Source of the DNA: Rhodoferax sp. | Lineage (GTDB): Bacteria > Pseudomonadota > Gammaproteobacteria > Burkholderiales > Burkholderiaceae_C | Assembly: GCF_028714215.1 (NCBI RefSeq) | Contig: NZ_JAQTMS010000024.1 | Coordinates: 6,156-70,155, forward strand | Direction: 5' to 3' | DNA: 64,000 nucleotides | Shown here: positions 15,272-48,978 of the stretch, piece by piece | Layout of the letters: each line of letters starts with the position of its first letter | Position numbering within the stretch: the stretch's first letter is position 1 | Notes under the pieces: model-generated | What the model was told of the DNA's origin: nothing | Database searches by the model: none | What the model saw: the letters and a program-made list of their open reading frames with translations, nothing else | Program-made: the position numbers and the translations under genes

Positions 15272-18200
15272 TCAGCCCAGGCGTTTCAACTGCTCCCTGA
15301 GCTTGGCCAGCGTCGCCTCAAAATCGGCCACCCGCTTGCGCTCCTGCTCGATCACGGCGGCAGGCGCTTTGGCCACAAAAGCCTGATTGCTCAATTTGCC
15401 GCCGGCTCGGGCAATTTCGCCTTCCAGACGGCTGGCCTCCTTGCCCAGGCGAAGTTTTTCGGCGGCTACGTCGATTTCCATGTGCAGGCAGATGCGGGCA
15501 CCGCCCACAACCGCCACCGGCGCTGCCTGCGCCGCGGCGGACCAGGCCGCCTCGTCGTCAAAGACACGTACTTCATTGAGCTTGGCCAGCGCCTGCAAGA
15601 CCGGCGCCGATTGGTTCAAAAAGTCGGCTTCAGCCGCCTGGCCGGCCATCACGAACAGCGGTAGCCGGGTCGCCGGCGAGACGCTCATCTCGCCGCGCAG
15701 ATTGCGGCAGGCATCCACCAGCGCTTTGAGTTTTACGACCTGGGCTATGGCCGCTTCGTCGATCCGCTCGGGCTGCGTCTGAGGGTAGGCCGCAATCGAC
15801 ACCGACGCGCCGCCACGACCGGCCACCGGCGCCACTTTTTGCCACAACTCCTCGGTGACGAAGGGAATCACCGGGTGCGCCAGCCGCAGTATGGTTTCCA
15901 GCGTGCGAATCAGCGTGCGGCGGGTGGCGCGTTTTTGCGCCTCGTTGCCTTGCTGAATCTGCACCTTGGCGATTTCCAGGTACCAGTCGCAGAACTCGTT
16001 CCAGATGAAGTCGTAGATTGTGTTGGCGACGTTGTCGAGACGGTATTCTTCAAAGCCCTGGCTGATATCGGCTTCGACGCGCTGCAACAGCGAGACGATC
16101 CAGCGGTCTGCCGCGCTGAAGTCCAGGTAGCCATGGGCGCTGCCGCCGACGGCGCATTCTTCCTGGGTGTGCTCGTTCAAGCCGCAATCCTGGCCTTCGC
16201 AGTTCATCAGCACAAAGCGGCTGGCGTTCCACAGCTTGTTGCAGAAATTGCGATAACCCTCGCAGCGTTTGGTATCGAAGTTGATGTTGCGGCCCAGTGA
16301 CGCCAAAGAGGCGAAGGTGAACCTCAGCGCGTCGGCGCCAAAGGCCGGAATGCCGGCCGGGAATTCTTTCTCGGTGTTCTTGCGCACCTGCGGCGCGGTC
16401 TCGGGTTTGCGCAGACCTTCGGAGCGCTTCACCAGCAATTCAGGCAACGCAATGCCGTCGATCAGATCCACCGGGTCCAGCACATTGCCCTCGGACTTGC
16501 TCATCTTGTGGCCTTGCGCATCGCGCACCAGACCATGGATGTAGACGTGCTTGAATGGCACCTGGCCGGTGAAGTGCGTGGTCATCATGATCATCCGGGC
16601 GACCCAGAAGAAGATGATGTCGTAGCCGGTGACCAGCACGCTGCTGGGTAGGTAGAGGTTGTAGTCGCTCAGCTTGCCCGCTGTTGCCCCGCGCTGAGAC
16701 AAGGCGGACTCGTTCGCACTCATACTCGCTGCGCTCGCCAAATCGTCGCGTCCGAGCCCGCCTTGCCCCAGCGCTGCGTTGTTGCTTTCGGGCCAGCCCA
16801 TGGTGCTGAAGGGAACTAGCGCGGAGGAGTACCAGGTGTCCAGCACGTCTTCGTCGCGCTTGAGCGTCTTGCCTGGAGCCTGGGCCTGCGCTTCGGCTTC
16901 GTTCCGCGCCACGTAGACCTGGCCGTTTTCGTCGTACCAGGCCGGAATCTGATGGCCCCACCAGAGCTGGCGGCTGATGCACCAGTCCTGGATGTTGTTC
17001 ATCCACTGGTTGTAGGTATTGACCCAGTTCTCGGGCACGAACTTCACCGCGCCGGATTGGACCGCGTCAATGGCTTTTTGCGCAATGGATCTGCCATCGA
17101 AGGCTGGACAATTTTCCGACGGGCCGCCCCTAGGAAAATTAGCCCCCTCGGGGGGCAGCGAGGACACGCCAGTGCCGAGCGTGGGGGCCTTGTTCATGGC
17201 GACGAACCACTGGTCGGTCAGCATCGGCTCTATCACCTGGCCAGTGCGCGCGCAGCGCGGCACCATCAGCTTGTGTTTCTTGATCTCCACCAGCAAGCCC
17301 AGCGCTTCGAGATCGGCCACCACTTTCTTGCGCGCCACAAAGCGGTCCAGCCCCAGATAGGCTGCGGGTGCCTGGTCGTTGATTTTGGCGTCCAGCGTCA
17401 ACACGCCGATCAAGGGCAGCTTGTGGCGCTGGCCGACGGCATAGTCATTCTGGTCATGCGCCGGCGTCACCTTCACCACACCGGTGCCGAAGGCCTGGTC
17501 GACGTAGTCGTCGGCAATGATGGGGATGGCGCGGTTGCACAGGGGCAGGGTGACCTGCTTGCCGATCAGGTGCCGGTAGCGCTCGTCTTCCGGGTGCACC
17601 ATCGCCGCCACGTCGCCCAGCATGGTTTCCGGGCGCGTCGTGGCCACCACCAGGCCGGCCGCCATTTCACCGTTCACCAATTGCGGACCGTCGGCAAACG
17701 GATAGCGGATGTGCCACAGAAAGCCGTCCTCTTCTTCGCTTTCCACTTCCAGGTCGCTGACCGCGCTTTGCAGCACCGGGTCCCAGTTGACCAAGCGTTT
17801 GCCACGGTAGATCAGGCCTTGTTCATAGAGCTGGACAAAAGTCTCGGTCACCGTTTTGGACAGATCTTCGTCCATGGTGAAGTATTCGCGGCTCCAGTCG
17901 ACGCTGTCGCCCATGCGGCGCATCTGGGTCGTGATGGTGTTGCCGGACTGCTCTTTCCATTCCCACACCTTGGCCACGAAGTTCTTGCGGCCCAGGTCGT
18001 GGCGGCTGATTTTTTGTTCCTGCAACTGGCGTTCGACGACGATTTGCGTGGCAATGCCGGCGTGGTCGGTGCCGGGGATCCAGACCGTGTTGGCGCCGCG
18101 CATGCGGTGGTGGCGCGTCAGCGAGTCCATGATGGTCTGGTTGAAGGCGTGCCCCATGTGCAGGGTGCCGGTGACGTTGGGCGGCGGTAACTGGATGGAA

Positions 18201-18358
18201 AAAGACGGCGCGCCCGATTTGGGCTGGCCTGTGCCGCGATAGCCGGCCTGCGCGTAGCCGCGGCGCTCCCATTCGGGTCCCCATTGGGCCTCGATGGCGG
18301 CGGGTTCGAAAGATTTGGAAAGGCTGTTGAGGCCCGGTTGTTGTTGTGCTTCGTTCAT
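15272..18358 (-). CDS. valS: Valine--tRNA ligase carrying two in-frame palindromic insertions
   Basis: [31 protein letters not shown]-terminal coiled coil; about 1028 aa from ATG 18358. Confidence 0.97.
16691..16774 (-). repeat. 84-bp hairpin element inserted in frame in valS
   Basis: 22-bp arms GCGCTGGGGCAAGGCGGGCTCG / CGAGTCCGCCTTGTCTCAGCGC (three G-U pairs); length is 28 codons. Confidence 0.75.
17110..17188 (-). repeat. REP-like element inserted in frame in valS ([26 protein letters not shown])
   Basis: GCCCCCACGCTC...CCCCCCGAGGGGG...AATTTTCC-N-GGAAAATT nested palindromes inside the coding sequence. Confidence 0.75.
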
Positions 18359-18468
18359 GTTGCCTTTGATTTTATTCGGGAATAAGATTTTCATAGGCAA
18401 AAGCAATTCAAGGCATTGATGCAGTCAATTAGACCGAGCTCGCCTTCCCGGCTAAGCTCTACCCGTCT

Positions 18469-45853: not shown

Positions 45854-46019
45854 GCCAAACGCCGTTCAGCGTAGCGGGTGGATCAGGCCGGTGGGGCACT
45901 CAGCTCCGTGTCCCCCGCCCTGCGGGCTCCTCCTTTACCTGCGCTAAGTGCCCCACCGACCTGGTCTCTCGTGCAGGGTTGGTGTGCGACCGGCGCAAAC
46001 CACAGACGCTTGCCGCCGA
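45854..46019 (+). repeat. Composite palindromic dispersed repeat, left copy
   Basis: GGTGGGGCACTCAGC...GCTAAGTGCCCCACC inverted repeat; matches 48593-48898. Confidence 0.88.
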
Positions 46020-48592: not shown

Positions 48593-48978
48593 GCGCTGAG
48601 CACCCCACCAACCTGATCTTTCATGCAGGGTTGGTGTGCGACCGGCGCAAACCACAGGCGCTCGCCGCCGAGGGTGCTGCGGTGGGTGGCGCAGCGAAAT
48701 GCCAAACCCCGTTCGGCATAGCGGGAGGATCAGTCCGGTGGGGTACTCAGCTCCGCGGCTGTCCCCCGACCTGCGGTCTCCTCCTTTATGCCGCTGCGCT
48801 GAGTGCCCCGCCAGCCTGATCTTCCAGCAGGGTTGGTGTGCAGCCCGCGCGAACCACCAACGCTCGTCGCCGAGGGCGCTGGGGTGGGTGGCGCAGCGTG
48901 GACTTGGGGTTTTGCCAAATAGAGGGGGAGGCCGAAGGCCGGCGGACATTCGCGGAGCCACCCACCCAAGCACCCTCG
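48593..48978 (+). repeat. Tandem/composite palindromic repeat cluster, right copies
   Basis: Partial unit 48593-48697, full unit 48701-48898, and a 22-bp inverted repeat 48871-48892 / 48957-48978. Confidence 0.88.

Follow-up and report, generated by a model that had tools for sequence, protein, structure and literature searches.

A palindromic insert in Rhodoferax valS is probably an old member of a hairpin repeat family whose fold, rather than peptide, is conserved

We analysed a 64,000-nucleotide stretch of Rhodoferax sp. DNA (contig NZ_JAQTMS010000024.1, positions 6,156 to 70,155), called the window below, with a focus on an 84-nt hairpin that lies in frame in valS, the gene encoding valyl-tRNA synthetase (ValRS). 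This gene carries two inserts. The first is a Betaproteobacterial repeat element (BRE), and the second is the hairpin. The features concerned are as follows, in window coordinates.

15272..18406, minus strand: open reading frame (ORF) of valS, from the ORF list and its translation; carries both inserts
17110..17188, minus strand: insert 1, an in-frame BRE, from alignment to published BREs
16691..16774, minus strand: insert 2, the in-frame 84-nt hairpin (28 codons, residues 545-572), from sequence, translation, fold and covariance models
16753..16774, minus strand: 5' arm of insert 2, mRNA sense GCGCTGGGGCAAGGCGGGCTCG, pairing with 16691-16712
16691..16712, minus strand: 3' arm of insert 2, mRNA sense CGAGTCCGCCTTGTCTCAGCGC, partner of the 5' arm
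16713..16752, minus strand: loop region of insert 2, 40 nt, including a 4-bp stem extension
16719-16745, minus strand: family motif CGATTT...TATGAG inside the loop, common to intergenic copies in this genome and elsewhere
16728-16734, minus strand: apical GCGCAGC tip of insert 2, of the GCGNAGC mini-hairpin type
16667..16780, minus strand: full length of the additional segment (NAALGQ...GKLS, residues 543-580), as compared with T. thermophilus ValRS

The true start of valS is likely the ATG at 18358 (MNEAQ...) or that at 18394. T. thermophilus ValRS (1GAX) matched the gene product with E = 2e-191 in four aligned blocks interrupted exactly where the two inserts lie, at residues 405/439 for insert 1 and 542/581 for insert 2. 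At the second site, the extra segment amounts to about 37-38 codons when compared with the T. thermophilus enzyme and with empty alleles (PEKTQDFD), and the hairpin itself accounts for 28 of them. The peptide GWPESNNA stands directly N-terminal to the hairpin, in a host loop bounded by GWP and LYLPSS, and the added residues would form a surface loop presumably harmless to the enzyme. The 22-nt arms form 19 Watson-Crick and three G-U pairs on the mRNA strand, the latter being C-A mismatches on the opposite strand. The hairpin is far beyond chance. Folded as RNA, the sense strand reached -58.6 kcal/mol (z = -6.5, with 0 of 200 shuffles as good), versus -39.9 kcal/mol (z = -2.2) for the antisense strand. 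The original prediction, made from the letters of the window, had described an in-frame hairpin of 84 bp and 28 codons, with 22-bp arms whose three mismatches are all G-U pairs on the mRNA strand, and had proposed RNA folding as a check; each of these points was confirmed. It had also singled out a "REP-like core", GCGAGCGCAGCGAGT, after the repetitive extragenic palindromes (REPs). This core is present, but it is part of the apical loop, with the GCGCAGC tip, inside the CGATTT...TATGAG motif.

Insert 1 was aligned to the BRE reference sequences of PMC3110155 (supplementary list S1) and showed 60-61 identities over 71-72 aligned bases with published Bordetella BREs (83-86%, scores 27.5-32.5). 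Under the same comparison, insert 2 gave a global alignment score of 8.5 against three published BREs, which is no real alignment, and its identity as a BRE is ruled out. The two inserts belong to different repeat families, as had been predicted. The BRE core occurs about 32-39 times in this genome. At valS site 1, a BRE was found only here and in genome G023, and not in the closest relative (G054), while at site 2 it was found in three other species (L002, L008, and L013). Since a BRE occupies the same loop in other species, the GWP/LYLP loop of valS is an insertion hotspot for two unrelated families.

The history of insert 2 was followed in valS orthologues from 24 genomes of the same genus and 16 of the same order. 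In other genera site 2 is short (e.g. PERTPDLD), and the hairpin was not present outside Rhodoferax among the genomes compared. Within Rhodoferax the site is polymorphic, nine species having the short form (PEKTQDFD), and a homologous hairpin insert stands at the same codon position in seven of 20 species (unbiased sample). Other states are a BRE-type insert (two species), a BRE together with a hairpin (one), and the flanks without the hairpin (two, L015 and L021). A covariance model, R1, was built from seven valS site-2 inserts that can be aligned without gaps. It gave one strong match (67-102 bits) in each of 30 of the 101 genomes of the genus and two in a 31st (G079), and the copy of the window scored 97.2 bits. 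Every strong match checked lay at valS site 2, in frame and in the sense orientation, except for the extra copy of G079, which is inverted and also in frame. The ortholog alignment, another check that had been proposed, thus placed the hairpin at the same site in about a third of Rhodoferax, the outgroup site being short. Derived flanks (PE.SNA... / G....L[SN]D[YI][ND]) are common to all filled alleles, including those with a BRE alone and those deleted of the hairpin, and empty Rhodoferax alleles resemble outgroup valS. In a whole-gene valS tree calculated with both insert regions masked, hairpin alleles are found throughout the genus, including its deepest branches, and empty alleles are scattered. 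Because about a third of the genus, deep branches included, has the valS copy as an orthologue with shared derived flanks, this copy is old and does not reflect a recent event.

What has been conserved over this time is the pairing. In the MAFFT alignment of the seven ungapped inserts, compensatory changes were found in 16 of the 27 predicted pairs. Among the 31 valS copies, 92.1% of cells were paired versus 73.1% in column shuffles (0 of 500 reached the observed value), pairing fell to only 27-40% when the partners were slid by 1-3 columns, and 21 of the 27 pairs had changed on both sides; this second alignment was fitted to the model and so favours structure somewhat, but the ungapped MAFFT alignment agrees with it. 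The arms differ completely between clades, GCGCTGGGGCAAGGCGGGCTCG in one being GCTCAGGACGGAGCCCGCGCCGAACCGGGC in another, and because they are wholly replaced, the encoded peptide switches from ALGQGGLGR... to AAQDGARAEPG.... Mean pairwise diversity at the three codon positions was 0.071/0.050/0.276 in the 240 nt of valS downstream of the insert and 0.283/0.357/0.280 inside it. The absence of codon-position periodicity in the insert indicates that the peptide is free of purifying selection. One could still imagine a functional ValRS peptide under selection at the protein level, with an incidental palindrome, since the insert is always in frame and retained in many species and its central DLASAASMS-like stretch is relatively conserved. 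However, this conserved centre coincides with the nucleotide motif of the family, which intergenic copies keep just as well, clades differ entirely in the residues that the arms encode, and many congeners do without the loop. Together with the lack of periodicity, this makes a functional peptide highly improbable. Conservation of the pairing and not of the peptide across the genus indicates that the constraint acts on the folded nucleic acid and not on the protein.

In its own genome (5.16 Mb), blastn-short and fuzzy-pattern searches with the 84 nt, with the arm (up to 5 mismatches), and with the loop (up to 6 mismatches) returned the valS copy only. The original prediction had staked its claim of a repeat family on a genome-wide search for the arms, and by that search they are unique. 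This is nevertheless a poor measure for the present family, because arms vary among copies while the loop motif and the structure persist. Through its weaker matches, R1 pointed to hairpins between genes whose loop reads CCGAT(T/G)TCGCAAAGCG(A/C)AGCGCGT(A/C)TGAGG. A scan for the exact loop in one genome per species, covering 185,579 species, found 84 copies in 60 contigs, in Rhodoferax/Comamonadaceae only, and the named loci of the family are all from Rhodoferax or from Comamonadaceae metagenome-assembled genomes. These exact-loop copies have stems of 24-25 bp in two arm classes, A and B, which vary between copies yet remain complementary, with compensatory changes in 25 of 30 pairs. Inside what we call the loop, an internal pair alternates between T-A and G-C (37:34) without a single broken case; T.T positions lie on either side of it, and a tandem G.A/A.G adjoins the stem. 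Over the whole family, stems range from 22 to 30 bp and elements from 84 to 90 nt, and the small apical hairpin is specific to each subfamily, often GCG(A/C)AGC. GCGNAGC is a very stable DNA mini-hairpin motif (reviewed in PMC13037366). The 5' arm of insert 2 resembles the class-B arms of intergenic copies (GGGGCAAGGCGG in L097, L130, and L142), and the loops of two copies located between genes or in an MmeI-like gene (L064 and L071) differ from the valS loop at two of 27 positions.

A second covariance model, R2, was built solely from intergenic copies. Run on the window, it recovered the valS copy, solely on the minus strand (32.1 bits, E = 4.5e-5), and in the whole genome it found at least nine further copies at 44-67 bits, which belong to two other loop subfamilies sharing CGATTT...[TC]ATGAG. 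Since R2 found these nine relatives from other loop subfamilies, searches by sequence only are unfit for this family, which has about ten copies in this genome. R2 matches were present in 19 of 121 genera of the host family. An Rfam scan of 12 family loci, in which the valS copy was not scanned separately, gave only sub-threshold eukaryotic miRNA hairpin models, and we found no description of the family in the literature. The family, in which stems vary and a non-canonical internal loop is conserved, is apparently undescribed. Elsewhere in the window, at 45872-45975 and 48723-48826, R2 gave weak matches (18-21 bits) on both strands; these are other long hairpins, probably of a dispersed 79-bp repeat, and do not belong to this family.

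Residence in coding sequence is recurrent in the family, because copies whose loop departs from the valS loop at two of 27 positions were also found in frame in a gene for an MmeI-like methyltransferase with a target recognition domain (TRD; PF20473 and PF20466). The four genomes concerned, two from Rhodoferax and two from elsewhere, represent at least three genera.

L172 775-2949 (genome G085): MmeI-like host gene
L173 612-2585 (genome G113): MmeI-like host gene
L167 (genome G222): MmeI-like host gene
L168 (genome G207): MmeI-like host gene

Up to three hairpins are found per gene, in both orientations, in a Pro-rich linker and near the TRD, with the peptides GADLASEASMRP, GADFWAFDSMRP, and GLILSKAQKSAP. 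Of the active invasion of coding sequences that the original prediction had proposed, these in-frame copies support the spread into genes, whereas the valS copy, old and orthologous across the genus, does not speak for current activity. The same prediction looked to a RAYT (REP-associated tyrosine transposase) as the agent. A RAYT-like Y1 transposase ORF does exist in this genome (231 aa, PF01797 at 48.8 bits, C12:9323-10018), but it is flanked by a different sequence, perfect 27-nt inverted repeats (AATAATTGGGGTCAGATTCCAATTAAC, C12:9210-10051) unrelated to the hairpin. This 27-nt repeat has about ten copies genome-wide, each with its own small palindrome, and by its sequence organization the C12 locus has the layout of a classical REP-RAYT system, with no relation to either valS insert. 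Most of the 15 Rhodoferax genomes that were searched (11 of the 14 giving a match) have a comparable ORF of about 235-250 aa. In G097 and G055, the distance between the hairpin copies and the RAYT-like gene is at least tens of kb. A REP/RAYT identity of the family is ruled out by its size of 84-90 nt, its variable stems, its roughly ten copies, and the different repeat at the RAYT-like gene. That insert 2 is a recent, independent hit by an active multi-copy repeat of the REP/RAYT type is accordingly very unlikely. Two unrelated repeats inserted in valS, a site 2 that carries a BRE, a hairpin, or both depending on the species, the in-frame copies in the MmeI-like gene, and the RAYT-like gene itself would fit such a hit. 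The genome, however, holds no copy with a similar arm or loop at up to 6 mismatches, the nine relatives are of other loop subfamilies, and the insert is shared across the genus with its flanks.

A mutation process that is symmetric between strands would yield equal numbers of G-U and A-C pairs. In the intergenic copies, read in the loop-sense orientation, tracing of the stems gave 132 G.T versus 14 A.C, and counting in fixed alignment columns gave 120 G-U versus 13 A-C (binomial test applied). In helix 1 of the valS copies, 38 G-U and eight A-C were counted. The bias of wobble pairs to one strand indicates that the fold of the loop-sense strand, which is the mRNA-sense strand in valS, is what matters. 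Two of the three U's in the G-U pairs of the window are C in L049 (...CCTTGCCCCAGAGC), the closest relative copy, and therefore represent recent C-to-T changes, which were tolerated because a wobble pair was retained. The predicted link between the G-U pattern and selection on the structure of RNA or single-stranded DNA (ssDNA) is borne out by this family-wide excess on one strand.

Imperfect inverted repeats are known hotspots of template-switch mutation, a mechanism by which palindromes become perfect (PMC7202029). The palindrome could be kept in this way, one arm being copied from the other, and be neutral junk without function in a permissive loop. Such copying would produce seemingly compensatory changes without selection, and the unconstrained peptide and the loss of the hairpin in some lineages that retain the flanks (L015 and L021) are as expected for junk. 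Self-correction, on the other hand, predicts Watson-Crick perfection and no strand bias, while we observed about 9:1 of G.U over A.C on one strand. Moreover, the non-canonical G.A, A.G, and U.U positions are conserved and not "corrected", and the pair between them covaries. We consider an absence of function unlikely.

Many intergenic copies are arranged in pairs. In 23 such pairs, an antisense copy precedes a sense copy and 106-219 nt separate the two loops; each pair is made of one class-A and one class-B arm set, without exception. At C44:24260-25909 of this genome, an inverted hairpin pair brackets a 1475-nt segment of low GC content (0.52) with a TIR_2-domain gene (C44:24629-25645). The orthologous locus in G056 (L187 2148-2767) has the same pair around a different cargo of 446 nt with a small lipoprotein-like ORF, and the C44 locus looks, from this sequence comparison, like a hairpin-bounded variable cassette. 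A stretch of less than 2.5 kb at C4:53727-56161, also in this genome, contains three members of the alpha loop subfamily (GCGATTTTAAAAAGCGAAGCGTATGAGC), of which the second and third are inverted around about 1.3 kb of sequence with low GC at third codon positions and small membrane-protein ORFs, for which no Pfam family was matched.

These arrangements raise the possibility that the hairpin is an ssDNA element. A unit that moves or recombines would have inverted hairpins as its two ends, the hairpin would be one such end on its own, and a single-strand-specific enzyme would read one strand at each end. The valS copy would then persist because the fold of that strand matters or because it is still acted on. 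The constant make-up of the 23 pairs, the low-GC cargo bracketed on C44 and C4, and its replacement at the orthologous locus all argue for such an element. So do a full inverted pair in frame in the valS gene of G079, two copies antisense to their host gene that keep their wobble on the loop-sense strand, and the stable DNA mini-hairpin motif at the tip. On the other side, no transposase or recombinase was found beside the pairs, a different repeat surrounds the RAYT-like gene, a target-site duplication could not be defined, and most genomes bearing the valS copy are without a second strong copy. The apical hairpin also varies between subfamilies, and U.U/T.T positions and a tandem G.A beside a covarying pair suit an RNA motif at least equally. 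We regard this explanation as possible, although on the doubtful side.

Altogether, insert 2 is probably an old, vertically inherited, in-frame member of a Rhodoferax/Comamonadaceae hairpin family whose fold is kept by selection. Its membership in the family, its age, its compensatory evolution, the absent peptide constraint, and the strand asymmetry are all observed. A single insertion, no later than the base of the genus, would have placed the element in the length-variable ValRS loop between GWP and LYLPSS, where its translation would add 28 unconstrained residues (37 with the flanks). Its proposed structure consists of a variable stem of 22-30 bp, a C-G pair, a tandem G.A/A.G, a U.U, the covarying U-A/G-C pair, a second U.U (CGAUUU/UAUGAG), and the apical hairpin. 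The sense-strand fold would be what is conserved, with arm substitutions compensated, wobble tolerated on the sense strand only, and the three codon positions evolving equally fast. On these sequence grounds, we propose that purifying selection on a folded single strand keeps the hairpin. Selection at the RNA level is slightly favoured, although it falls short of an even chance: a hairpin in the transcript may affect stability, processing, or ribosome transit. Selection at the ssDNA level is a serious but somewhat less probable option. The pointers to RNA are that the valS copies are all in sense, that 11 of 13 solo intergenic copies lie downstream of a co-oriented gene, and that the internal loop is like an RNA protein-binding motif. 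The orientation of the pairs is uninformative (right-hand neighbours: 21 minus, 14 plus), and the ORF calls used for solo copies and pairs were crude.

Several points weigh against this reading. The reason why a host would preserve a hairpin of -58 kcal/mol inside an essential ORF is not obvious. Transcription-coupled C-to-T bias on the non-template strand could contribute to the asymmetry in valS, and the paired cells counted in the valS copies are not independent events. The inverted pairs bracketing variable cargo point to DNA over RNA, and the two antisense copies do not follow the strand of their host gene in their wobble. Other points concern the history of the site. The whole-gene valS tree is poorly resolved, its well-supported branches forcing at least five state changes (10-11 as drawn), and so is a local tree of 438 nt around the site, with at least two changes forced by supported branches (five as drawn). 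The trees require allele replacement by recombination, or the alternative of repeated site-specific insertion. At site 2 of G079 (L059, contig C296, 117-344), two copies in opposite orientation, 36 nt apart and both in frame, follow each other as antisense then sense, like the intergenic pairs. A nested copy is present at site 2 in G008 (L003/L035) and G060 (L043).

At the nested site, a left arm of the window type and 11 nt are followed by a complete hairpin with different arms (GCTTCCGGGCGAGTCGGGACCG), which suggests that the resident element was partly duplicated or was itself the target of a new insertion. The nested copies, the inverted copy of G079, and the arrival of a BRE in the same loop show that valS site 2 was hit more than once. 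Because the valS trees could not settle between one and several origins, the shared flanks were used to infer the history, and they make one old insertion, followed by allele exchange and occasional loss of the hairpin, more likely than many de novo insertions.

A further-reaching reading, which we put forward as tentative and rather unlikely, is that the family represents a new class of strand-specific structured element. It could be a functional RNA motif kept by the host, with its tandem G.A/U.U internal loop, even inside an essential ORF. It could also provide the ssDNA ends of an undescribed system of hairpin-bounded cassettes, in which inverted pairs bracket exchangeable low-GC cargo of the defence type and the copy in valS would be a solo end that was domesticated or left stranded. 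The context of this second variant would be the TIR gene in this genome, the other cargo at the same locus in a relative, and the several copies inside MmeI-like restriction-modification genes. If inverted pairs do bound exchangeable cargo, this could indicate a new way to organise or mobilise small gene cassettes. In-frame palindromic repeats are best known from Rickettsia, where attention has usually gone to how a protein accommodates the additional peptide. In the present case, a single orthologous copy can be traced through a whole genus of free-living bacteria, with the fold of one strand conserved while the peptide drifts. The locus is a natural experiment in which to ask how a hairpin within an essential coding sequence is selected for its structure, or maintains itself. 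Such inserts also inflate the length of aminoacyl-tRNA synthetases and can mislead annotation and alignment-based phylogeny.

The family resembles several known systems in part. Integron attC sites are imperfect palindromes in which structure is conserved over sequence; they are read as folded ssDNA on one strand and bound cassettes. The hairpins share with them the imperfect palindrome and the conservation of structure rather than sequence, and may share the reading of one strand and the position at cassette boundaries. However, attC sites keep their outer R''/R' boxes (GTTRRRY), vary centrally, form arrays in direct orientation, and depend on IntI, whereas our family has a conserved centre, a variable outer stem, and inverted pairs. 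No GTTRRRY boxes were seen by inspection of the intergenic alignment, and IntI was not searched for. Inspection of valS and intergenic copies likewise revealed no consistent direct repeat that could be a target-site duplication. Compared with miniature inverted-repeat transposable elements, the element is one long inverted repeat; a parent insertion sequence was sought through PF01797 only.

REPs form hairpins, are mostly intergenic, often occur as inverted pairs with a short spacer, and show long vertical persistence, and their structure matters (PMC3116915, PMC3337134). The hairpin formation, mostly intergenic location, inverted pairs, and vertical persistence are shared with REP/REPIN-RAYT systems. 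REPs differ in having about 20-35 nt, a conserved stem, hundreds of copies, and the same REPs flanking the RAYT gene, while in our family the stems vary, the loop motif is conserved, and the copies are few. BREs are GC-rich repeats of about 90 bp from Comamonadaceae (Rhodoferax being listed), mostly intergenic and at times wholly inside coding sequences (Hot et al. 2011, PMC3110155). They are like insert 2 in length, hosts, occasional coding location, and use of the same valS loop in other species, but form another sequence family, whose copies in this genome are near-identical, unlike the variable-stem copies of the hairpin family.

The closest analogue is found in the Rickettsia palindromic elements (RPEs), which are palindromic, occur between genes and in frame in housekeeping genes, and are translated with protein function tolerated (PMC10969869). 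Both families are palindromic repeats that reside between genes and in frame within protein-coding genes. They differ in that RPEs belong to a different group of hosts, ours being free-living Betaproteobacteria, and measure about 100-150 bp versus about 85-90 nt here. In a comparison with RPEs by description, the exact loop motif was confined to Rhodoferax/Comamonadaceae among the species genomes scanned, which does not point to homology. The present family has in addition a low copy number (about ten per genome) and a strong one-strand wobble asymmetry. The RPE peptide is described as conserved, whereas here the peptide is unconstrained and pairing is kept by compensatory change. The family behaves like RPEs, but is conserved at the level of structure rather than of the peptide.

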